Positions 1,774 to 11,812 of a stretch of 32,000 bases of DNA are shown here, piece after piece; position 1 is the first letter of the stretch; the number at the start of each line of letters is the position of its first letter. The stretch is from the NCBI GenBank assembly GCA_000775715.1, contig JRWQ01000001.1:510225-542224 (forward strand), read 5' to 3'. A program made the translations under genes and the position numbers. The notes under the pieces were generated by a model that saw nothing but the letters and a program-made list of their open reading frames with translations, was not told the DNA's origin and ran no database searches. This DNA is from Vibrio tubiashii (GTDB lineage Bacteria; Pseudomonadota; Gammaproteobacteria; Enterobacterales; Vibrionaceae).

Positions 1774-2009
1774 CTGCCATCAAAGATACGGTGCCGCCCG
1801 TAAAAGAAATGGACAGTTCCTATCACCTTCAATCTGTGGTTTCAGGTTTGCTTTATGCAGGTTTATTCATCACGTATGGAATACCTAGTTAATACCCGAA
1901 GAGAAAGAAAACGCTCTTAAAATAGTTACTTCTTGAGATTCGGAGACACTAATCTGGTAATGGTTTATCTAGGGTTGAGTTTAAAACTAATTATTGTTAG
2001 CTTGTCGGC

Positions 2010-2063
2010 ATGAAATGTATCACAACACCTTCATCATTTTTCTTTTGGTGGCGCTCTAACTAG
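2010..2063 (+). CDS. Putative Trp leader peptide MKCITTPSSFFFWWRSN*
   Basis: ATG AAA TGT ATC ACA ACA CCT TCA TCA TTT TTC TTT TGG TGG CGC TCT AAC TAG; tandem Trp codons at 2046-2051 upstream of a TrpRS gene. The TGGTGGCGC tail resembles the E. coli trpL WWR tail. Weak point: no strong Shine-Dalgarno before the ATG. Confidence 0.7.
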   Translation: MKCITTPSSFFFWWRSN

Positions 2064-2155
2064 AGCGGCACGGGATTCTCACATTCTTAAGCTGCTGGAA
2101 GGTGGCTAGGACTGTGTTCTCATTATCTCCAGTAGCGATCTATTTACTAGGAGAT
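2048..2155 (+). promoter_or_regulatory. Structured leader with competing hairpins ahead of trpS-like gene
   Basis: Hairpin A:B GTGgCGCTCT-aact-AGAGCGgCAC (2048-2071); C:D GCTGCTGG (2091-2098) with CCAGTAGC (2129-2136); D':E ATCTCC-AGTA (2125-2134) with TACT-a-GGAGAT (2145-2155), the latter holding the SD GGAG at 2150-2153. Confidence 0.65.
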
Positions 2156-2161
2156 TAAATC

Positions 2162-3184
2162 ATGAACACTAATCAACCCTCTAATAAATCAGAAATTATT
2201 TTAACAGGCGACAGAGCGACAGGTCCCTTGCATCTTGGCCACTATGTCGGCTCTCTGAAGCAGCGTGTCTCTTTGCAACATGCTCACGACCAGACTATTC
2301 TTGTCGCTGATATGCAAGGTCTAACAGATAACGCTCACAATCCCTCAAAAGTATCTTCTAATATACTTAATGTCGTCGCAGATTATCTTGCGGTAGGTAT
2401 CGACCCGAGTAAAACAACCATTTGTCTTCAGTCGCAATTACCCGCATTAGCTGAGCTAACGATGTATTACAGTAATCTTGTGACGATAGCGCGATTGGAG
2501 CGAAACCCTACCGTGAAAAGTGAGATTCAAAATAGAGGCTTTGAACGCTCTATCCCTGCTGGCTTTTTAACATACCCAATTTCTCAGGCCGCAGACATCA
2601 CAGCTTTCAACGCGACTCTCGTTCCTGTTGGGGATGACCAACTGCCTATGCTTGAACAAACAAATGAGATTGTAAGAAAAATAAATGCCCTCGCAGGAAA
2701 AACAGTTCTCAATGAATGCCGCCCACTACTAAGTAACGCACCGCGTCTACCTAGCACAGATGGAAAGAACAAGATGTCAAAATCAATGGGCAATGCAATC
2801 AACCTTGGTTTTTCTCAGAAGGAGATCAGTGCTGCTGTAAAATCAATGTATACCGACCCAAATCACTTGAAAATTGAAGATGCAGGTTGTGTTGAAGGAA
2901 ACGTTGTTTTTACCTATCTTGATGCATTTCACCCAGATTCAGACTACATCACCCAATTGAAGGAGCACTACCAACGAGGAGGTCTTGGTGATGGAACCAC
3001 AAAAAAAATCCTTGATGAATGTCTGCAAGAACTACTTCGACCTATTCGAGAGAAAAGAGCTGAACTATTAAATGATAAAGCTCAGTTAATCAACATTTTG
3101 GCTAAGGGAAGTCAGGTATCTAGAGAGAAAACTGAGAAAGTACTTTTTGATATCAAAGATATATTCGGGCTGAATATCCTCTGA
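2162..3184 (+). CDS. trpS: Tryptophanyl-tRNA synthetase (possible auxiliary/second copy)
   Basis: Class I aaRS signatures PLHLGHYVGSL and KMSKS, LVPVGDDQLPMLEQT, GIDPSKTTICLQSQ. SD GGAG 8 nt before ATG. Confidence 0.93.
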   Translation: MNTNQPSNKSEIILTGDRATGPLHLGHYVGSLKQRVSLQHAHDQTILVADMQGLTDNAHNPSKVSSNILNVVADYLAVGIDPSKTTICLQSQLPALAELTMYYSNLVTIARLERNPTVKSEIQNRGFERSIPAGFLTYPISQAADITAFNATLVPVGDDQLPMLEQTNEIVRKINALAGKTVLNECRPLLSNAPRLPSTDGKNKMSKSMGNAINLGFSQKEISAAVKSMYTDPNHLKIEDAGCVEGNVVFTYLDAFHPDSDYITQLKEHYQRGGLGDGTTKKILDECLQELLRPIREKRAELLNDKAQLINILAKGSQVSREKTEKVLFDIKDIFGLNIL

Positions 3185-3474
3185 ACTGAACAGACTATGC
3201 TTCGGGAGCCTCAACTCAAACTAGTGAGTAATGCTCCCGACCTGATCCGAGTTGCATTGGCATGCAACAACCCACCACAAGCAGGCAACAAGTATGTTTA
3301 ACCGCTACAAACATCATTTCCAGTCTTTTTTGAACGTAACTTGCTGTCAATTGCAAGGTTAAGCAAAGATAACGCCATCAGGTTATCACTTAACTCAAGT
3401 AGAGTTCTGACTCACCAGATTTCCTCTAGTCTAAATGGCTTTTTGACACCTGTGTCTCTACCTTTTTTAGTCAT

Positions 3475-4278
3475 TTACTGAGGCTGACGTTTCATATCGT
3501 CATGAACCATGGCATTGTCCAGTTCGTGGATTGTACCGATACGCACACGTTTTTCCGGTGCCAGCTTTTCGTACTCAGTGAGATAGATATCGCTGTGAAT
3601 GTGCTCGGCAATCATTTTCACCAACAGGCGATTGTTGGTATATAAGCCTACCGTCTCTTCTCGATGTGAGAACATTAAGCCCTGCTTCATATCGGCAACA
3701 ATCATAAAGCGGTGGGAAGGATACTCAGTCTCTTCATTATCTGAGCGAGCGTAGAGCTCAATTTTTGGATGAGGTACCGCGATGCGATTAAATGAGAAGG
3801 CGATAATTCGCACTCCACGCTCAGCCGCCTCAATCAATTCTGCCGAGAATCTTGGGTCAAGTTGGAAGTCGGTGTTGAGGTAGATTTCGACTTGAGCTAA
3901 CTCGATCACCTCTTTGGCTTTCTGGACTAAGTTGTCGATACCAGTGACGTTGTACACAAACTCTTTTTCCTCAGTGAGCATCATTCGTGACAACTCTTTC
4001 TTAAGGATATGGATGTTTTCTACGGTACTCTTTTCGATCTGGTTAAAGATAAGCTCTGGAGATTTGGCTTCGTACTCTTTAGTGTCTCCATCGGACATAA
4101 AGATATAACCATTTTTGTATAGATTATCGATAGAAGAGTAGACAGAAGAACGCGACAGAGAGATATCTTTCGCGATTTTGTAGCCACTGGCACAACCGTT
4201 TTTGAGAAGGTTGATATAGACCAAGGAATCCGTTTTCGTAAAACCAAAATTCATCAACTTAGTAACCAAGTCTGACAC
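3475..4278 (-). CDS. TrmB-family transcriptional regulator (sugar-responsive type)
   Basis: N-terminal TrmB-type wHTH (LMNFGFTKTDSLVYINLLKNGCASGYKIAKDISLSRSSVYSSIDNLYKNGYI) plus helical linker and PLD-like effector region. Track ORF extends to 4302; GTG at 4278 has a good RBS (AGAGGA-caaacc-GTG). Confidence 0.82.
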   Translation of the reverse strand: MSDLVTKLMNFGFTKTDSLVYINLLKNGCASGYKIAKDISLSRSSVYSSIDNLYKNGYIFMSDGDTKEYEAKSPELIFNQIEKSTVENIHILKKELSRMMLTEEKEFVYNVTGIDNLVQKAKEVIELAQVEIYLNTDFQLDPRFSAELIEAAERGVRIIAFSFNRIAVPHPKIELYARSDNEETEYPSHRFMIVADMKQGLMFSHREETVGLYTNNRLLVKMIAEHIHSDIYLTEYEKLAPEKRVRIGTIHELDNAMVHDDMKRQPQ

Positions 4279-4335
4279 GGTTTGTCCTCTAAAATTATTC
4301 AATATTGTGTTCCACTTTGGTTAGATTATCACTGG

Positions 4336-5235
4336 TTAAGCTCTAAGCCTAACTTGACGTGCAAGTAGTTGCGCTTTTGTTTGAGCTGCTCCGTGAGCAA
4401 TAGAAAAATCCTCGTAGGGCAGAGCCAGCATTGCTGGCCGCGGGGAGAGGTTGCAATAGCGACTAAGGGCAACTTTTAGGTCACTCGAGATCTGTGCATA
4501 GCGCGACGCGCTGCCAAGTATTAGCAAGCTTCTTGGCAAGCTATTTTCGATATGTGGCTTTAGCGCGCGAGCCAGTTGATCGATGTAGCGTCGATAGGTA
4601 CGTGCGGCAATAGGGTCTCCAGATTCTAATGCGCAAAATATCTCTTTTACATTGGCGCGTTTAAGCAGGATCTGCTCATACTGTCGCTCCAATCCTGAAA
4701 CCGAAACAAACTGTTCAGTACACGCTTCACTGGCACAACTGCAGCTAGTAACGAGGCCATCAAGGACGAAGTCATAGTCCGGAAGAGCGACATGCGCCCA
4801 GGGTATCGAGCGCATGGTGCGTTGAGAAATACCGCGACGAGTTCTACTGCAAGAGTAAAGCTCGCATTCGTTATCGAGTACAACGCACAGCACTTCTCCG
4901 AGTTTTATCTGCGATAAGACATCAGGTGAACTCTGTAAACCAGCTTCGACAAAGTTGCTCTTGCTGCAAGGGATTCGATAGTGCTGTTCAATCAGGGTGG
5001 GTAACGCCAATTGATGACGCTCAAGCCAGACTTGAACTTCCTCAGTCATCGCCAACCCAATCGAACAGAATGTACTGTATGCCCATTGGAAGTTGTCCAC
5101 CAACTGAAACACCTGCTGTTTAACTTCCAGCGCGGTCTGATTGAGGCTTTGCTGACTCGTATATACGGTATTGAGCTGCTCATCAAGCACCGTCGCCTTG
5201 AGTTGAACTTTGTCTATCGAGATCCCCAGATGCAT
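4336..5235 (-). CDS. ROK-family-like protein (sugar kinase/regulator-like), divergent
   Basis: MHLGISIDKVQLKATVLDEQLNTVY... and C-terminal RSLLILGSASRYAQ...FSIAHGAAQTKAQLLARQ give an ROK-like layout. Preferred start at 5235 with upstream GAGGGGAA; track ORF extends to 5289. Confidence 0.6.
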   Translation of the reverse strand: MHLGISIDKVQLKATVLDEQLNTVYTSQQSLNQTALEVKQQVFQLVDNFQWAYSTFCSIGLAMTEEVQVWLERHQLALPTLIEQHYRIPCSKSNFVEAGLQSSPDVLSQIKLGEVLCVVLDNECELYSCSRTRRGISQRTMRSIPWAHVALPDYDFVLDGLVTSCSCASEACTEQFVSVSGLERQYEQILLKRANVKEIFCALESGDPIAARTYRRYIDQLARALKPHIENSLPRSLLILGSASRYAQISSDLKVALSRYCNLSPRPAMLALPYEDFSIAHGAAQTKAQLLARQVRLRA

Positions 5236-5248
5236 GCTTTCCCCTCGC

Positions 5249-7018
5249 TTAGTCGTACCAGTAACCGTAAGCCGGTAAACTGATGTCACGATTATCTAGC
5301 GTTACGTTGGCCGGAGAGTCGCTGTTGTTGATCAGGAAGCGTCTTGAGCCGCGTTGATAGCCGACAACGGTAGGATGATGAGTCTCTATCCAGTCGATGT
5401 ATGGTTGATTAAAGCTGTCATCGCCTTTTCTTAGCTCGATCAGTTGTTCAATGAAGGCTTTGAAATCGAGTTCTGTCTGGTTTGGAGACCAGTTCATACA
5501 GCGGCGGTTATCTTCAAGTCCCATGCCTTTTCTCCCTTCCATCGCGACTTCGCCGCCATAGTAAATGCAGGGAGCACCAGCTTGAGTGAACATAAACAGA
5601 TAGGCGAGTTTCGCCCGACGAAGATCGTTACCGCAAAGACTAATTAAGCGAGTGGTATCGTGGCTTTCTAGCAAGTTAAACATCGCTTCGTTAACGTTGC
5701 GTGGATAGGCCAGATAAGCGCTTGTGACAGTCTCCATAAACTGCTGTTTGTTCTGGGCATCAAGGGCAAAGTAATCGGTAATGGCCTGAGTCATTGGGTA
5801 GTTCATTAACGAATCGTACTGATCACCACGCAACCATGGCATACCTTCGTGCCAAATCTCCCCCAAAATGTAGCAGTCTGGTTTTACCTGCTTAACTACG
5901 TTGCGAAACTCGCGCCAGAACTGGTGGTCAACTTCATTGGCGACATCCAGTCTCCAGCCGTCGATGTCGAACTCTTCTACCCAGTAGCGAGCGACATCTA
6001 ACAGGTATTCACGACATGGCTGATGTTCAGTGTTGAGCTTTGGCATCTCAAGCACGTTGCCAAACGTTTCGTAGTTGAAGTTCCAGCAGTCCCACTCCGA
6101 TTTATCAGTGTCGGGATAAACGGGGAACTGATTGATCCAAAACCAGTCTGCGTATTGAGATTTTTCGCCGTTCTTAACCACGTCTAACCAGAACGGATGT
6201 TGATCGCCGATGTGATTGAACACCGCGTCGAGCATCACTTTCATGCCTCGATCATGCGCCTCTTTAATCAGAGCTCTGAATGCTTCATTGCCGCCAAAGT
6301 GAGGATCGACATTGAAGTAATCAACTGTGTCGTACTTATGGCTGGTATTGGCAGTAAAGATTGGGCACAGATAGAGTCCGTTGACCCCCAAATTTTTAAG
6401 GTAATCGAGATGTTCAATTACGCCCCACAAATCACCGCCCATAAAGTTGCTTGAGGTAGGAACGCTTCCCCATGGCTCAGCATTTTTCGGGCTTATTTCT
6501 GGTCTTCCGTTGGCAAATCGTTCAGGAAAGATCTGATACCAAACGGTCGACTTGGTCCATTGTGGAGTGACCAGAACATCTTTTGGATTGATATAAGGGA
6601 AGCAGAAGAAATTGCTCAGATTGCTCAGCTCAGTTTCTTCCGCTGCCTTGCTGTGTAAATCAACGGTGCGTTTCTCGCCAAACAGTATTTTTTCACCATC
6701 TTTGCCGTAGAGAATAAAACCGTAACGACTGCGGCGTTTAGGCGGTGTAAACTCCGCAAACCAGTGGTCGTGATGTTCGGTGACACCTTCTCGTTCCATT
6801 GGAACTTCGTTGCCACCGACCCAGCCATGAGCATCGCTGCCGCCCAGGTTACCACCGTCCAAGCCTCCTTCCGCCCAGCGGTAAGGGTCACCTATCCATA
6901 AGCTAACGCGCTCAACTTCGTCTTTGGCACATTTAAGTCTCAGGTGCAGAGTCTGCTCATCGTAAGCGTAGCTGTCCGCACTTTTAACTGTGTGTGTTAG
7001 TGAGCTTCGGGTAATCAT
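5249..7018 (-). CDS. GH13 cytoplasmic cyclomaltodextrinase/neopullulanase-type glycosidase
   Basis: DAVFNHIG, EFDIDGWRLDVANEVD, YILGEIWHEG, NLLESHDTTR (catalytic D/E/D), MPKLNTEH and an N-terminal beta-sandwich domain as in GH13 cyclodextrin-hydrolysing enzymes; no signal peptide. Confidence 0.88.
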   Translation of the reverse strand: MITRSSLTHTVKSADSYAYDEQTLHLRLKCAKDEVERVSLWIGDPYRWAEGGLDGGNLGGSDAHGWVGGNEVPMEREGVTEHHDHWFAEFTPPKRRSRYGFILYGKDGEKILFGEKRTVDLHSKAAEETELSNLSNFFCFPYINPKDVLVTPQWTKSTVWYQIFPERFANGRPEISPKNAEPWGSVPTSSNFMGGDLWGVIEHLDYLKNLGVNGLYLCPIFTANTSHKYDTVDYFNVDPHFGGNEAFRALIKEAHDRGMKVMLDAVFNHIGDQHPFWLDVVKNGEKSQYADWFWINQFPVYPDTDKSEWDCWNFNYETFGNVLEMPKLNTEHQPCREYLLDVARYWVEEFDIDGWRLDVANEVDHQFWREFRNVVKQVKPDCYILGEIWHEGMPWLRGDQYDSLMNYPMTQAITDYFALDAQNKQQFMETVTSAYLAYPRNVNEAMFNLLESHDTTRLISLCGNDLRRAKLAYLFMFTQAGAPCIYYGGEVAMEGRKGMGLEDNRRCMNWSPNQTELDFKAFIEQLIELRKGDDSFNQPYIDWIETHHPTVVGYQRGSRRFLINNSDSPANVTLDNRDISLPAYGYWYD

Positions 7019-7034
7019 AAATTAGATCCTGTTA

Positions 7035-7868
7035 TTATTCTTTTACTGCACCACTCACTAAGCCTGTGGTGATGTGTTTTTGAGTCGCAACAAAAAGCAG
7101 AGTGATCGGTATTGCTACCAGCAGAGAGCCTGCGGCAAACAGAGTGAAGTTTTCTGCCGAGTTAGAGGTGATCCAACTGAAAATACCAATAGCCAGAGTC
7201 ATTTTCTCTTCACTGCGTAAGATCAGAGTTGGCAGAATGAAGTCCATCCACGGGCCAGTAAATGACACCAGAGCGACAAACACCAAGATAGGTCTCGCCA
7301 GAGGTAAGATGATCTCGATAAAAATAGTCATATGCCCTGCACCGTCGATTTTTGCTGCCTCATCGAGCGAAGTCGGAATCGCGTCAAAGTAACCCTTCAC
7401 TAGCCAAGTCATAAACGGTAGCGAGCCAGCGACGTAGACAAACAACAGACCGGCGTAGGTATCGATCATATTAAGTTTCGATAGCAGGATATAAATCGCT
7501 GTCATCGATAAGAACGCAGGGAACATCTGCAATACCAGCACACCCATCAAGACATTGCGTTTGCCTTTAAATCGATAGCGTGAGAACACGTAAGCGGTCA
7601 TGGTGACCACCACCAGAGAAATCAGCATATTCGCCGTTGCCAGAGCGAAGGTGTTGAGATACCACTGCAAATAAGGGGTATCCTGAAACAGCGCCACATA
7701 ATGCTCTAGTGAAAAGCTCCAACCGGAAAACGAGGAGCTGAACATATTGCTGCCCGGTTTGAAGGACGCCAATACTGTCCAGATAACCGGCCCTAAAACC
7801 AGTAATGCATTGGTTAACAGGAACAGATAGACCAAACCTGTGGCTAATTTTTGCAACAGAAACTTCAT
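7035..7868 (-). CDS. MalG-like ABC sugar permease
   Basis: Multi-TM; EAAKIDGAGHMTIFIEIILPLARPI EAA loop; MalG-like C-terminus. Confidence 0.92.
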   Translation of the reverse strand: MKFLLQKLATGLVYLFLLTNALLVLGPVIWTVLASFKPGSNMFSSSFSGWSFSLEHYVALFQDTPYLQWYLNTFALATANMLISLVVVTMTAYVFSRYRFKGKRNVLMGVLVLQMFPAFLSMTAIYILLSKLNMIDTYAGLLFVYVAGSLPFMTWLVKGYFDAIPTSLDEAAKIDGAGHMTIFIEIILPLARPILVFVALVSFTGPWMDFILPTLILRSEEKMTLAIGIFSWITSNSAENFTLFAAGSLLVAIPITLLFVATQKHITTGLVSGAVKE

Positions 7869-9154
7869 TACTTCATCCCCACATCATCGCTAAACGAAGA
7901 CATCCGTCGGAACTGCCAGATCGCAATCACTGACAAAAACAAGAAAATAATTATCGAAATCACAGAGGCGATTTGGTACTGCTGGAAGTCGAGTGTGAGT
8001 TTGTAAATCCAGGTAATTAAGATGTCGGTATGCCCTGCAAATCGGTACTCAGGGTTGATCGGTCCGCCTTCGGTTAACAGGAAGATTGCGCCAAAGTTAT
8101 TGAAGTTATGGGCAAACGTCATCACCAGAGAAGGAGCGACCTGATGCAACACCATCGGTAGGGTGATTTCCCTGAACTGCTGGAACTTGTTGGCGCCATC
8201 GACCTCACTAGCCTCATAAAGATCTTGAGGTATGTTGGTTAAGGCTCCTGAAATAAGCAGCATGAAGTAGGGAGCACCGACCCAGACGCTGACCGCTATC
8301 ACCGTGACTTTCGCCATCCATGGATCGGAGAGAAAAGCAACGGAATCAAAGCCCCAGCTATTCAGGGTTGCATTGACCGGACCGACACCATTTAATAGCA
8401 GTCGGAACATCAGCAGAGTAACGAAAGCAGGAATCGCATAAGGTAAAATAAAAACGAAACGCCACGCTTTTTTCGCTTTGATGTTCTTGTTGGACAACGC
8501 CAGTGCCAGCACAAAACCAAAACCACAGGTACATATAGTCGCCAGAATCGCCCACATCACTGTCCAGGTTGCTACGCCAACAAAGGTATTCGACCAAATT
8601 CGCAGTTCAAACAGGGCGATAAAGTTCTTAAACCCGACCCAGTCAACCAAGTTCCTTGGCGGAATATGATGAGGCGCTGAGTAGTTGGTAAATGAGACCA
8701 GTACGGTGATGACAATCGGCATAATGATAAAGGCGATACTGGTTAACATTGCTGGAGAAAGCACCAGAAAAGCAAACTGTCGGTCATATATCGCTTTGAT
8801 CTGCTCGGACGCTGACATCTGACACGGCTGGCAGGATTTGGCATCATTGATGTTAAGTGCATAAAGGCACAGAAAAACAAACACCGCGATCAGAGCAATC
8901 ACACCTTCAACCAACAGGAAGACAGAGTGATCGCCCTGAATGATGGTGAAGCCTTCGCGTGTCTGAGCCACATCGCCAAGAGTAATGAGCTGCTTTAACG
9001 CCAGGCTAAGCTCTGGAATGCTAAAGATAAAAAGTAGCTGAATGAGCAACCAGACCAAGCCTTTTACCCAATGGCCCTGACGCATTTGCGTCAGGCCCAT
9101 GATAAGAACTGAAGCGTTGATCATTGGTTGCATTCGAGTTTGAGACAACAACAT
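7868..9154 (-). CDS. MalF-like ABC sugar permease
   Basis: Multi-TM; EASEVDGANKFQQFREITLPMV EAA loop; overlaps the MalG start by 1 nt. Confidence 0.9.
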   Translation of the reverse strand: MLLSQTRMQPMINASVLIMGLTQMRQGHWVKGLVWLLIQLLFIFSIPELSLALKQLITLGDVAQTREGFTIIQGDHSVFLLVEGVIALIAVFVFLCLYALNINDAKSCQPCQMSASEQIKAIYDRQFAFLVLSPAMLTSIAFIIMPIVITVLVSFTNYSAPHHIPPRNLVDWVGFKNFIALFELRIWSNTFVGVATWTVMWAILATICTCGFGFVLALALSNKNIKAKKAWRFVFILPYAIPAFVTLLMFRLLLNGVGPVNATLNSWGFDSVAFLSDPWMAKVTVIAVSVWVGAPYFMLLISGALTNIPQDLYEASEVDGANKFQQFREITLPMVLHQVAPSLVMTFAHNFNNFGAIFLLTEGGPINPEYRFAGHTDILITWIYKLTLDFQQYQIASVISIIIFLFLSVIAIWQFRRMSSFSDDVGMK

Positions 9155-9157
9155 CTC

Positions 9158-10384
9158 TTACTCCTGTAAACTGATCTGTTCTTTGATCACTGACTCAGCA
9201 CGCTTTAACACCTTCTCTGGTGACTTGTCATTGACCCATAATGAAGTCATGGCACTTGCCATTGGTGACCACAAGTAACCCATTTCAGGAATTGACGGCA
9301 TAGCATCGGCGAAGTAACCCTGACCAATGATCGCATAAGTCGCTTCATCAGCATCGACGATTATCTCCTCCATAACAGCCTGAACTGGCGGAATCGATTT
9401 CGTCATCTCGTAGCGTTTTTTAAGCATCTTGTCGCTACTTAGGTAGCTGGCAAACAGTTGAGCGGCTTTAGGGTAGTTGGTGAAAGAAGAAACGACCGCC
9501 AGACGAACTGTTGAGAAAGTTCGCGGTTGCTTGCCATCCAGAGTGGGAATTGGAATGACGCCATAGTTCACTCCAGAAGCCTCGTAGCCCTGAATTGCCC
9601 ACGGGCCATCGATGATTGCTGCAACCTTACCTTCACTGAACAAACCTCGTCTTACCTGAGGGTTACGCATATCCATTGGGTTAGCACTGTTTGCAGCCTG
9701 TAGCTTTTTCATCGCTTGTAAGCCTTGCTGTGCTTGCTCCGAGGCGATGCCGATATCTTGGGCATTGGTGCCGTTATCGCCAAATTCGTAAGCTCCATAT
9801 AGGGTCAGGAACATGCGTGATTCATAGTAATTCTGCACGTCCCAAAGCAGAGCATATTTGTGTTCTTTGTTGTCATTAAATGACTTAGAGAACTCAATGA
9901 TCTGTTCAAAAGACTCGGGAGCCTGTGGAAGAAGATCCTTGTTGTAGAACAGAGCGGTTGTGGCAAAACTTACCGGGAAGCCGTAGCTTTTCCCCTCAGA
10001 ATTTGCTGCGTTGACAGCACTTTGTAAGAAGTGAGCGTTGATGTGATCAGCAGAGACCAGATTTTCCATCGCACCACCAGCTACGACTAAGCGACCAAGC
10101 AGGTCATGCTCAATTTCAGCCACATCAGCGACTCGAGCTGAGCCTCCATCCTGGATTAATCGTGAAGCGGCATCAATCGGTGCCAGTCCACGGAAAGTGA
10201 ACGCCACCTCATAACCCGAATCCTGATTGAACTGGTTGGCGGCGTACTTCATATAATCGACGGTTGTGTGATCGGTCCAGACTAACAGATTTGCACCTGG
10301 TTCCGGTTCAATCGGCTGTGCCATGGCAGTGGCGCTAACAAGAGTGGTGAGCAGTATTTGACTGGTCAATAACTTGGTTTTCAT
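9158..10384 (-). CDS. Maltodextrin/cyclodextrin periplasmic binding protein (MalE-like)
   Basis: Signal peptide MKTKLLTSQILLTTLVSATAMAQP, binding-protein sequence ANLLVWTDHTT...EGKVAAIIDGPWAIQGY. Start M5 of track ORF (10384) more plausible than 10396. Confidence 0.88.
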   Translation of the reverse strand: MKTKLLTSQILLTTLVSATAMAQPIEPEPGANLLVWTDHTTVDYMKYAANQFNQDSGYEVAFTFRGLAPIDAASRLIQDGGSARVADVAEIEHDLLGRLVVAGGAMENLVSADHINAHFLQSAVNAANSEGKSYGFPVSFATTALFYNKDLLPQAPESFEQIIEFSKSFNDNKEHKYALLWDVQNYYESRMFLTLYGAYEFGDNGTNAQDIGIASEQAQQGLQAMKKLQAANSANPMDMRNPQVRRGLFSEGKVAAIIDGPWAIQGYEASGVNYGVIPIPTLDGKQPRTFSTVRLAVVSSFTNYPKAAQLFASYLSSDKMLKKRYEMTKSIPPVQAVMEEIIVDADEATYAIIGQGYFADAMPSIPEMGYLWSPMASAMTSLWVNDKSPEKVLKRAESVIKEQISLQE

Positions 10385-10393
10385 TGCTGCATC

Positions 10394-10426
10394 CAATTTA
10401 GTAGTTCACGATATACTACTAAATTG
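10394..10426. promoter_or_regulatory. Perfect 11-bp inverted repeat, candidate operator or 5'UTR hairpin
   Basis: CAATTTAGTAG (10394-10404) - ttcacgatata - CTACTAAATTG (10416-10426). Confidence 0.6.
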
Positions 10427-10474
10427 AGGCGAATGGAGATTTTAGTCAATTGAAAACTGCTTAAAATAGCGTCT

Positions 10475-10496
10475 AAATGTGATCTAAATCGACTAA
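10475..10496. promoter_or_regulatory. Candidate CRP site in the divergent sugar promoter region
   Basis: AAATGTGATCTAAATCGACTAA compared with CRP consensus AAATGTGATCTAGATCACATTT: left half perfect, right half weak. Confidence 0.5.
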
Positions 10497-10774
10497 ATTG
10501 CTTATCTCACAACGAATTAAAGCCGGTTTCGGCTTGCTTACATTCTTATTGTTAGTTTTATTTTTAATGGCTATTAACTCGAATCAATCGCTGTTTTTAG
10601 TGACGCTCTTCAAATTATCACCCGAATTCGAGTGACCAAGATCTCATTTAAATCCCATTCAGCGAGCAAATAATATTCAGATACAGAACAATGACTAGGC
10701 GTTCAGGCTGAACTACTACTTTTAAATCCGATTAATATCAATAGAATCCACCTCTATGAGGTTAAGGAAACACT

Positions 10775-11812
10775 GTGAACAGGACTGTACTCTCGCTCAG
10801 TATTGCTTGCGCTCTGAGCTCTGCACCTGCTGCTTTTGCTGCGGAAAAAGGACCGGCTCCCCAACAAATGGGCGGTAATATTCTGACTCAAGCCTTAGAT
10901 TTTGGCGGCCACGTTGGAACGTCGATTGAAATTGAAGACAAAGATATTACCAACTACAAAACCTGGGGTGGGCAAACAGAAAATGAACGCACTACCACCC
11001 ATGAAGTGATTGGACTGTTTTATAAAAACGCCCACTGGAACTTCTCGTCTTTGTACGCTTTTAAGTTGACTGACCGTGTTAAACGCAGTCAGGATCGCTC
11101 GTACACGGAAACGGAAGATGGCTATAAGCACCTGATTTCAATTGATAAAAAGTTCTCATTACCGAACGGTTTTGAAACTGGCGTTATCTATGACCTTGAA
11201 TACTCACTAGGTACTATTGCTACCACTGCTGGCGTGAGCAACCTGCGTACTACCAATGCAGAACACAGCATTCGCCCTTATCTCAACTTTTACAGCAATG
11301 AGTACGATGCAGGCTTCCAATCCAACCTTGAATACCTCTACAACGACGAAGATAAATCGGCGTGGGGCACTCGAGTTGAAGAAGGTTACTCGGTGTTAGT
11401 TAAGCCCTATAAACGTTTTGGTAACTGGGAGCTGGGTGTAGAGTTCTACTACCAGATTAAAGACAACAAAGCGCATAACAGTGATGGCTCAATTAACGAA
11501 ATTAGTGACTTTACTGAAAAGTATGTTGAGCCAATCGTACAGTACAGCTTTGAAGATGCTGGTACCTTATACGTTCGTGCCCGTTACGGTGAAAACGAAA
11601 CCAAACATACACAAGGTTGGGCTGCAGGAGAGCAGTACTTCAAAGATATTCGTAAAGCCACTATGGGTTACGAACAGTCTGTCGGTGATAACTGGTTGCT
11701 GAAAGGTGAGTACGAGTGGGCCAAAGATACTGAAACCTTCACTCAGCTTGCTGGAGAGGAGAAGGTCGTTGAGCAGAACACCTTCTTGCTCCAGGCTATT
11801 TACCGTCTGTAA
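10775..11812 (+). CDS. OmpG/CymA-like monomeric outer-membrane porin
   Basis: GTG start with AAGGA RBS; signal peptide MNRTVLSLSIACALSSAPAAFA; alternating amphipathic strands, terminal NTFLLQAIYRL. Confidence 0.8.
   Translation: MNRTVLSLSIACALSSAPAAFAAEKGPAPQQMGGNILTQALDFGGHVGTSIEIEDKDITNYKTWGGQTENERTTTHEVIGLFYKNAHWNFSSLYAFKLTDRVKRSQDRSYTETEDGYKHLISIDKKFSLPNGFETGVIYDLEYSLGTIATTAGVSNLRTTNAEHSIRPYLNFYSNEYDAGFQSNLEYLYNDEDKSAWGTRVEEGYSVLVKPYKRFGNWELGVEFYYQIKDNKAHNSDGSINEISDFTEKYVEPIVQYSFEDAGTLYVRARYGENETKHTQGWAAGEQYFKDIRKATMGYEQSVGDNWLLKGEYEWAKDTETFTQLAGEEKVVEQNTFLLQAIYRL

Follow-up and report, generated by a model that had tools for sequence, protein, structure and literature searches.

The leader RNA of an auxiliary tryptophanyl-tRNA synthetase (TrpRS) gene in Vibrio tubiashii is probably a ribosome-mediated attenuator, which would read the supply of charged tRNA-Trp through two adjacent tryptophan codons and control the gene, a trpS paralogue of the TrpRS II type, by a relay of six RNA segments. 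We analysed a stretch of 32,000 nucleotides of this genome (contig JRWQ01000001.1, positions 510,225 to 542,224; hereafter the window), in which the leader spans positions 2010-2165, and followed up an earlier note on the same DNA that had drawn attention to it from the sequence alone. Our models of RNA folding suggest that the leader most likely turns the TrpRS gene on when charged tRNA-Trp is scarce.

A leader ORF conserved for its tandem tryptophan codons

When positions 1700-2400 of the window were read, ATG 2010 was found to open a leader open reading frame (ORF) of 17 codons that closes at TAG 2061-2063, with adjacent Trp codons at 2046-2051 separated by 111 nt from the trpS start codon (ATG 2162). 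This is the ORF that the earlier note had proposed, and it was confirmed both in the sequence and among relatives. A scan of one genome per species covered 272 relatives, from which we kept 80 loci (protein identity 75-96%) in Vibrio, Photobacterium, Alteromonas, Paraglaciecola, Psychromonas, Pseudoalteromonas, Shewanella, Colwellia and others. In 79 of the 80, a leader ORF of 16-20 codons with two adjacent tryptophans (WW), ending in ...WW(R/C)S-x-stop, precedes the orthologous trpS by the same distance. The sole exception, from an uncultured Vibrio (L007; L numbers denote loci), has no WW leader; its upstream sequence is unrelated from residue 2, and the end of the contig is near.

Variation within the leader follows a pattern like that of coding sequence. 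Entropy at the three codon positions was 1.16, 0.96 and 1.38 across 73 leaders, the third position being the most variable and the second the least, and frames 0, 1 and 2 contained stop codons in 1, 61 and 16 of these sequences, respectively. Both UGG codons were unchanged in all 73 leaders. Eight more distant homologues (protein identity ~61-71%), from an E. coli IncFIB plasmid, Klebsiella, Salmonella, Aeromonas, Proteus, Salinivibrio, Photobacterium DA100 and the beta-proteobacterium Variovorax, all carry a leader ORF, and WW is the sole feature common to their peptides (...RRWWLPA, ...NYWWCCF, ...QNWWRFI, ...TQWWRAL, ...FSWWHG, ...LSWWHSLL and ...LRWWLPS). A homologue in Acinetobacter baumannii (L082) is preceded by AT-rich sequence in which no WW ORF is found. 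Taken together, the alignments indicate that the leader ORF is real and that conservation falls on the Trp codons, not on the peptide.

Predicted promoter and leaderless start

An ungapped alignment of the window with 76 loci, anchored on the leader ATG, pointed to a promoter directly upstream of the leader (Table 1). Its extended -10 element (TGtTAGaTT in the orthologues) is conserved, as are the 17-nt spacer to the -35-like hexamer and a distance of exactly 6 nt from the -10 element to the ATG, over which the bases vary and no Shine-Dalgarno (SD) sequence is present. Visual inspection showed the same -10-to-ATG spacing in the homologues on the E. coli and Klebsiella plasmids. Given this spacing, transcription probably starts at or beside A2010, and the leader ORF would hence be leaderless, which is unusual for a translated leader in a gamma-proteobacterial attenuator.

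Farther upstream, between a dehydrogenase gene and the trpS promoter, the minus strand holds a strong terminator-like hairpin (1745-1775; 13 pairs, tail TCTTTTGTGG) that may belong to a divergent small transcript or act as a bidirectional terminator. A sub-threshold Rfam match to the Aar small RNA (sRNA; 1726-1866, 25.9 bits, E = 0.13) overlaps it.

Alternative helices in the leader RNA

The leader RNA (2010-2165, 156 nt) has a minimum free energy (MFE) of -44.9 kcal/mol, with z = -2.71 against dinucleotide shuffles, of which 2 in 200 were as stable. In our model it would be divided into six segments: segment 1, the Trp codons followed by CGCUCU; segment 2, AGAGCGGC; segment 3, GCUGCU; segment 3', GGUGGC with the lower stem of hairpin II; segment 4, an anti-SD strand; and segment 5, the SD of trpS. 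The percentages of paired cells given here come from an alignment of 74 distinct leaders (alignment A1); these close leaders resemble each other, and most covariation counts represent few events.

All four pairings that the earlier note had drawn lie where it placed them and are kept in this alignment. Hairpin I (1:2), at 2048-2071, places the Trp codons in a helix that is kept by a C-G to U-A change in 11 sequences, where a change from an Arg to a Cys codon goes with a G-to-A change in the 3' arm; inspection of the alignment also revealed a U-A to A-U change that occurs together with a UGA stop in three sequences. The pairing of segment 2 with segment 3 (AGCGGC 2064-2069 with GCUGCU 2091-2096) is found as the lower helix of an antiterminator hairpin and is 99.1% paired, this 6-bp helix varying on one side only. 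The 3:4 helix, GCUGCUGG (2091-2098) with CCAGUAGC (2129-2136), is 97.4% paired, and its covariation amounts to one pair, U-A to C-G, in four related Photobacterium sequences. Burial of the SD by AUCUCCAGUA (2125-2134) paired with UACU-a-GGAGAU (2145-2155), over GGAG 2150-2153, was likewise present. This hairpin III has an energy of -10.5 kcal/mol in its local context and -9.2 kcal/mol as the specified helix; both partners vary in five of its pairs, and its foot pair is seen as UA, GU, GC and AU.

To these we add hairpin II, in which a lower stem (2080-2088 with 2108-2116) is followed by A2090:U2107 and by a top of GCUGCU 2091-2096 paired with GGUGGC 2101-2106 around a GGAA loop (2097-2100). 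Its energy in the orthologues averages -15.5 kcal/mol (range -10.6 to -18.8), and five of its pairs changed on both sides. Comparison of orthologous leaders, a check that the earlier note had proposed, thus gave the result it had looked for, with WW in 73 of 73 and compensatory changes in hairpin I, hairpin II, the 3:4 helix and hairpin III.

Two other pairings were considered and rejected. A pairing of GAGCGGCACGG with CUGUGUUCUC, seen in the MFE structure of the leader masked as for a stalled ribosome, is specific to the window and not conserved in orthologues. A hand search for direct pairing of segment 3' or the lower-stem 3' arm with segments 4 and 5 returned only GGA-a-GGUx with xAUC-UCC as conserved, and this is part of the AS helix described below. 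A mini-ORF across segment 4 (UUG UAU CUC CAG UAG) was also dropped; it is not conserved, and the UUG is absent in many loci.

As a separate observation, one Vibrio clade (L017, L026-L028, L031, L035, L041, L048, L049 and L051) carries a tandem duplication of ~12 nt of the 3' arm of the hairpin II lower stem (AAGAAUGUCAUC AAGAUUGUCGUC; columns 163-176 of A1). The duplicated arm parts hairpin II from the U-rich run and gives an alternative 3' partner.

Proposed coupling of the terminator apex, the anti-SD strand and the SD

Segment 4 has a second set of partners at the apex of hairpin II. In the AS helix, apex positions 2091-2099 and 2101-2104 pair with segment 4 (GCUGCUGGA with UCCAGUAGC, and GGUG with UAUC), giving 9+4 bp. 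The RNAalifold consensus of the 74 leaders consists of hairpin I, a small hairpin and the 3:4 helix. Complementarity between the apex and the anti-SD strand was found in nine of nine lineages with differing sequences, and in each of them it is the anti-SD arm that complements the terminator apex best. The duplex energies of the nine lineages range from -20 to -28 kcal/mol, with a shuffle fraction of 0.000-0.030. In Klebsiella, for example, GCCGGAAGGC pairs with GUCUUUCGGC, and in Aeromonas GCCGaGAGGCG pairs with CGCCUCcCGGC. This recurrence in distant lineages with different sequences is the strongest support for the architecture. It indicates that one anti-SD strand can pair either with the SD or with the terminator apex, which makes the leader an attenuator with a second predicted output.

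Table 1 Features of the trpS leader region, in window coordinates
Feature	Position	Strand	Evidence
-35-like hexamer, TTGAGT (orthologue consensus GTTGAG)	1975-1980	+	Ungapped alignment, 60 nt before leader ATG
Probable extended -10 element, TGtTAGCTT, 17 nt past the -35, ending 6 nt ahead of leader ATG	1995-2003	+	Motif and spacing conserved
Leader ORF, MKCITTPSSFFFWWRSN*	2010-2063	+	In 79/80 loci; open frame kept, indels in multiples of three
Tandem UGG UGG, predicted sensing site (segment 1 runs on to 2057)	2046-2051	+	73/73 leaders and 8 distant homologues
Hairpin I (1:2), 2048-2057 with 2062-2071; stop codon in loop and 3' arm	2048-2071	+	-15.3 kcal/mol; 98.4% of cells paired
Putative antiterminator hairpin (2:3), AGCGGC 2064-2069 with GCUGCU 2091-2096 and GGGAU 2072-2076 with AUUCU 2083-2087	2064-2096	+	-10.5 to -10.9 kcal/mol
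Hairpin II, terminator homologue	2080-2116	+	16 bp, -15.0 kcal/mol
U-rich tail past hairpin II, UUCUCAUUAU	2117-2126	+	Degraded in window clade; UUUCUUUUGU in most orthologues
Segment 4, anti-SD, UAUCUCCAGUAGC; partner is the SD (hairpin III) or the hairpin II apex (AS helix)	2124-2136	+	AS 97.2% paired
Hairpin III, SD sequestor, 2125-2134 with 2145-2155, A2149 bulged; SD GGAG 2150-2153	2125-2155	+	90.3% of cells paired
trpS paralogue, TrpRS II type, 340 aa, zero Trp residues	2162-3184	+	TIGR00233, structure matches

A terminator homologue with a variable U-rich tail

The earlier note had stated that the leader lacks a U-tract terminator, and on this point it overlooked hairpin II (16 bp, 2080-2116) and the run UUCUCAUUAU (2117-2126) that follows it. 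In most orthologues a U-rich run, typically UUUCUUUUGU, starts 0-3 nt past this hairpin and contains 6-8 U in 9 nt. The clade of the window has either UUCUCAUUAU or UUCUGAUUAU at this place, and 5 of 8 tail bases in the window are still U. A terminator scan called canonical intrinsic terminators at the equivalent position in the E. coli plasmid and Aeromonas homologues (L081 and L083); one example from the distant homologues reads CAAAGCCGCC-GGAA-GGCGGCUUUG, then UUGUUUCU. The Klebsiella and Salmonella homologues fold into GC-rich stems with U-tracts at the same position. In its layout, then, the leader is homologous to a classical attenuator, with 1:2, the 2:3 antiterminator and the 3:3' terminator. 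Hairpin II of the window itself is probably a weak terminator.

Proposed mechanism

We propose that when charged Trp-tRNA is plentiful, the ribosome would reach UAG and cover segment 2, or hairpin 1:2 would re-form. With segment 2 unavailable, segment 3 would fold with 3' into hairpin II, which would terminate transcription where the U-tract allows, as in most relatives and probably only weakly in the window. Any read-through RNA would retain hairpin II, leaving segment 4 to pair with segment 5 and bury the SD. When the ribosome stalls on UGG UGG, segment 2 would instead be free to pair with segment 3 as the antiterminator, and the GGAA loop and 3' would be single-stranded. Segment 4 could then nucleate on the free loop and 3' and displace segment 2 from segment 3, forming the AS helix; if this happens before segment 5 is transcribed, the SD would stay open and TrpRS would be made.

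A ribosome covers ~12-15 nt 3' of its A or P site. Measured along the sequence, a ribosome waiting with UGG in its A site would extend to ~2058-2061, so that segment 2 (2062-2069) would be left free; one positioned at UAG would extend to ~2073 and cover that segment. These footprints are inferred, as are the folding order, the direction of regulation and the extent of termination in the window.

Alternative readings and the sign of regulation

Several observations weigh against this attenuator model and concern its promoter, its terminator and its switch in turn. A promoter scan of the window called no site here, because the -10 hexamer (TAGCTT) matches the consensus at 3 of 6 positions and falls below threshold. 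A terminator scan of the window likewise called no terminator at hairpin II, because a bulge and a mismatch interrupt its stem; the base of the stem is AU-rich and the tail is only UUCUCAUUAU. Given the weak tail and the negative scan, translational control may dominate in the window. The alternative with the best standing, which is the reading of the earlier note once its sign is corrected, goes further and holds that attenuation is purely translational, working through the same relay, which can operate without termination: in the window clade, hairpin II would merely lock segment 3 away, and control would be exerted through access to the SD. The degraded tail of this clade and the interrupted, uncalled stem are what such a system would have. 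We nonetheless consider it unlikely, as distant relatives have a canonical terminator in the homologous hairpin, most Vibrio-type orthologues retain their U-rich run past the hairpin, and the window tail is still mostly U. The earlier note had favoured translational over trp-operon-style control; this holds up to the extent that the window's tail is weak and its scan negative, and fails in that relatives have canonical terminators at the hairpin II site.

The opposite view, that only classical transcription attenuation operates and that hairpin III and the 3:4 helix have no regulatory role, either damping translation constitutively or having arisen as by-products of the similarity among segments 2, 3' and 4, we regard as improbable. 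Segments 2, 3' and 4 do share an RGYRGC-like motif complementary to segment 3, and the 3:4 covariation within the 74 leaders is slight, being confined to the single pair in four related sequences. Against this, the complementarity of apex and anti-SD recurs in all nine lineages with different sequences and exceeds that of shuffles. Moreover, AGC 2134-2136 of segment 4, which sits in the hairpin III loop, is conserved although the partners within hairpin III vary.

Folding with ribosome masking, which the earlier note had suggested as a test, did not discriminate between states: the SD was paired in every one (probability of being unpaired ~0.01 at equilibrium), whether the 5' part was free, masked by a stalled ribosome or masked by a terminating one. 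Equilibrium folding therefore cannot explain the switch, a limit that applies to classical attenuators as well. The switch would have to rest on the kinetics of co-transcriptional folding, approached here by path barriers. Once transcription has reached 2140, with segment 5 still to be made, AS is the most stable fold (MFE -21.9 to -22.7 kcal/mol, against -15.0 for hairpin II and -10.9 for 2:3). Along the direct path, going from 2:3 to AS meets a barrier of 4.8 kcal/mol in the window (median 4.9 over 62 leaders), and going from hairpin II to AS meets one of 19.8 kcal/mol (median 18.8 over the same number). Once AS has formed, the barriers are ~21 kcal/mol back to hairpins II and III together and ~11 kcal/mol to 2:3 with hairpin III. 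The ~20 kcal/mol barrier is an upper bound, as the nested model bars pseudoknotted intermediates, and all barrier estimates ignore pseudoknots and the polymerase footprint; by reasoning alone, we estimate that a pseudoknot route would cost more than strand displacement from 2:3. At full length, the folds I+II+III and I+AS lie 0-2 kcal/mol apart in the window, L009, L018, L052 and L076, and further apart in L042, L016 and L069.

A third reading inverts the logic: stalling would lead to 2:3 together with 4:5 and thus to repression, and TrpRS would be produced solely under an ample supply of charged tRNA-Trp. Six nucleotides are common to the 2:3 and 3:4 helices, and the simple reading of this overlap is indeed 2:3 with 4:5, OFF on stalling, as a five-segment model (1:2 and 3:4 against 2:3 and 4:5) predicts. 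In the window the 2:3+4:5 state (-18.3 to -19.7 kcal/mol) is not less stable than AS with the small hairpin (-16.6 kcal/mol). We dropped the five-segment model, which gives the wrong sign, after the 3' arm of hairpin II and the canonical terminators of relatives had been found. Adding that arm removes the sign problem, as stalling then opens the SD in the model. The earlier note had likewise seen that a simple model predicts repression on stalling, a difficulty that came from five segments and that the six-segment relay would resolve. We judge the inverse reading to be very improbable. In relatives 2:3 blocks a canonical terminator, so a stall would raise mRNA and yet bar its translation, which would be self-defeating, and until segment 5 has been made, only a low barrier separates 2:3 from AS.

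Two further points bear on the sign. The enzyme is free of Trp in 86 of 89 loci, where ~4.6 Trp would be expected from the window's other long ORFs; TrpRS enzymes are generally Trp-poor, and we take the Trp-free enzyme as weak evidence that points away from the inverse reading. The Salmonella homologue (L089) has the Rfam sRNA isrQ (RF01399, 203 bits) divergently upstream, on minus strand 171-332. Since isrQ was mapped between STM4508 and STM4509 (PMC2330248), L089 is very likely STM4508, annotated trpS2. The mRNA of trpS2 is up together with trp genes in Salmonella biofilm (PMC2805695) and down with trpABCDE and mtr in a tolC mutant (bioRxiv 10.1101/2025.04.07.647610), and in thus tracking the trp operon it, too, argues against inverse logic. 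This co-regulation could also stem from a repressor such as TrpR and not from the leader. Separately, the 5' end of the Hfq-binding isrQ (332) overlaps the ATG of the Salmonella leader (329, plus strand) by 4 nt, so that the two starts would be back to back.

Another sensor altogether, be it a TnaC-like arrest peptide responding to free Trp, a T-box-like tRNA-binding RNA or TrpRS autoregulation on hairpin II, is hardly credible: FFWWRS is well conserved inside the Vibrio-type group, but hairpin I (CGCUCU) accounts for the conservation of WWRS, distant homologues have only WW in common (WWLPA, WWCCF, WWRFI, WWRAL, WWHG, WWHSLL and WWLPS), and Rfam returned no match to T-box or any other family.

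An auxiliary TrpRS in a mobile cassette

The identification of the gene as an auxiliary TrpRS, made in the earlier note, is supported by its protein matches. The protein matched Pfam tRNA-synt_1b and the NCBIfam equivalog TIGR00233 (234 bits, cut-off 176.75), and among solved structures it came nearest to 1yi8 and 2a4m (354 bits over residues 12-331); 2a4m carries the name TrpRS II, and both are presumably from Deinococcus radiodurans. Other bacterial TrpRS chains scored ~99 bits (8i1w and 5v0i, which we take to be from E. coli) and 93 bits (3sz3, presumably from Vibrio cholerae). By these matches the enzyme is of the TrpRS II type and presumably auxiliary, nearer to TrpRS II than to housekeeping bacterial TrpRS, and its class I catalytic core is complete. 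Its Gln52 appears to align with His43 of Bacillus stearothermophilus TrpRS. We take His43 to be an indolmycin contact and H43N to give resistance, and hypothesize from this alignment that the paralogue would be insensitive to indolmycin.

Similarity between the window and every other locus is limited to ~1971-3185 (1805-3292 in the closest relatives). It starts at ~1971-1974, that is, at the -35, and ends just past the trpS stop, and the flanks are unrelated, with different neighbouring genes even in the nearest relatives. Thus, promoter, leader and trpS appear to behave as a self-contained mobile cassette that sits in differing contexts. On the E. coli IncFIB plasmid pB379_2 (L081, 1212-6473), the WW leader and trpS lie between IS26 and an IS1 transposase, beside a diguanylate cyclase gene, and near-identical matches to the L081 protein were found on Shigella and Klebsiella plasmids. 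Among 5,426 complete E. coli genomes, one had a DNA match, which was distant and on a plasmid.

Some genomes hold two copies of the cassette: Vibrio sp. MA40-2 has one per chromosome, and Vibrio sp. HN007 has two on chromosome 2 (L001/L046 and L002/L004, respectively). In Proteus mirabilis (L084, 596-1184), a duplicated tRNA-Ser(UGA)/tRNA-Thr(UGU) pair, a typical integration hotspot, lies directly upstream of the leader; the candidate of a tRNA-Trp upstream of this homologue was discarded, the tRNAs being those for Ser and Thr. Beside the cassette, window positions 3475-11812 hold a cyclodextrin/maltodextrin-type utilisation cluster that is unrelated to the leader, with genes for a TrmB-like regulator, a ROK protein, an alpha-amylase family enzyme, two ABC permeases, a solute-binding protein and a CymA-type porin (PF16941, E = 7e-160).

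Relation to known leaders

The leader fell outside known RNA families. At gathering thresholds the whole window had no Rfam match, including to Trp_leader (RF00513) and T-box; with E up to 10, positions 1650-2300 gave just two weak, unrelated minus-strand matches upstream of the leader; and ten related loci had no match in their leaders. Our literature search, which was thin on subscription journals and may have missed an earlier comparative-genomics mention, found no published description of this leader.

Its closest parallel is the trp leader of E. coli, whose leader peptide has tandem Trp codons followed by CGC. Both have a short ORF with tandem UGG then CGC (here ...FFFWWRSN), the helices 1:2, 2:3 and 3:terminator, a stop codon placed so that a terminating ribosome covers segment 2, and a terminator more stable than the antiterminator, so that the outcome is kinetic. 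The leader described here differs in having no Rfam Trp_leader match, in serving an aminoacyl-tRNA synthetase rather than biosynthetic genes, in its added anti-SD and SD segments tied to the terminator apex, in a leader ORF that has no SD, starts 6 nt past the -10 and is probably leaderless, and in the weak terminator of the window.

The trpRS1 gene of the actinobacterium Streptomyces coelicolor, which Vecchione and Sello reportedly showed in 2010 to be controlled by a Trp-codon leader peptide, is also an auxiliary TrpRS gene that is induced when charged tRNA-Trp falls. There, attenuation is said to be transcriptional only, and the likeness is one of description and not of sequence; to our knowledge, neither an SD-sequestering output nor apex/anti-SD pairing forms part of what was described. 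In the trp leader of B. subtilis, studied by Merino, Babitzke and Yanofsky (1995) and by Du and Babitzke (1998), TRAP is reported to govern both termination and a hairpin that blocks the trpE SD. That system shares with ours two outputs for one signal and an SD hairpin that forms in read-through RNA only in the 'repressed' fold; its sensor, in contrast, is a Trp-activated RNA-binding protein and not a ribosome, and its sequences and helices are unrelated. The pheST attenuator of gamma-proteobacteria, for which we know of no SD-sequestering stage, serves a different amino acid and a housekeeping enzyme. In that operon, too, a leader peptide with cognate codons controls an aminoacyl-tRNA synthetase, and attenuators have been predicted upstream of Streptomyces trpS (both PMC1262725).

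In ermC and cat leaders, as proposed here, stalling of a ribosome in the leader ORF changes the pairing of the RNA downstream, so that a buried SD becomes accessible, and the sequestered SD with a competing pairing that characterizes them is found here in hairpin III and the AS helix. There, however, the stall site abuts the SD hairpin, and stalling needs a drug and a nascent peptide. Here the stall would occur at hungry Trp codons (2046-2051), 74 nt before hairpin III (2125), and act by relay, so that the geometry that defines the ermC type is absent. Finally, unlike a TnaC-type arrest peptide, only WW is kept across lineages, the residues that follow being RSN, LPA, CCF, RFI, RAL, HG or HSLL.

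The underlying principle is thus classical and not new. Three things are new in our view: the way in which terminator apex, anti-SD and SD are coupled, a leader ORF that is probably leaderless, and a mobile cargo of the TrpRS II type. It is quite possible, if short of probable, that these leaders form an undescribed and widespread RNA family of gamma- and beta-proteobacteria, including clinical-enteric IncF plasmids. In such a family, a leaderless Trp-codon ORF would drive a dual-output attenuator in which the terminator apex serves as a decoy for the anti-SD, so that only antiterminated transcripts would be translatable. The whole would be a mobile, inducible cassette whose Trp-free TrpRS II, lacking an equivalent of His43, would bypass inhibition of TrpRS by indolmycin or chuangxinmycin.

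With ~80 close and 8 distant loci examined and no Rfam family of its own, the leader would enlarge the small set of leader-peptide attenuators. It would wire one stall event to two outputs, termination and SD access, through competition between apex and SD for the anti-SD strand. The gradient from canonical terminators in enterics and Aeromonas to the degraded U-tract of the window may offer a natural system in which to follow a shift from transcriptional to translational control. The gene it would control, for a second and mobile TrpRS, occurs both on chromosomes of Vibrio and, in segments flanked by IS elements, on plasmids of E. coli, Klebsiella and Shigella. If this TrpRS is insensitive to inhibitors, the cassette would provide ready inducible resistance to a class of drugs that is still being developed.

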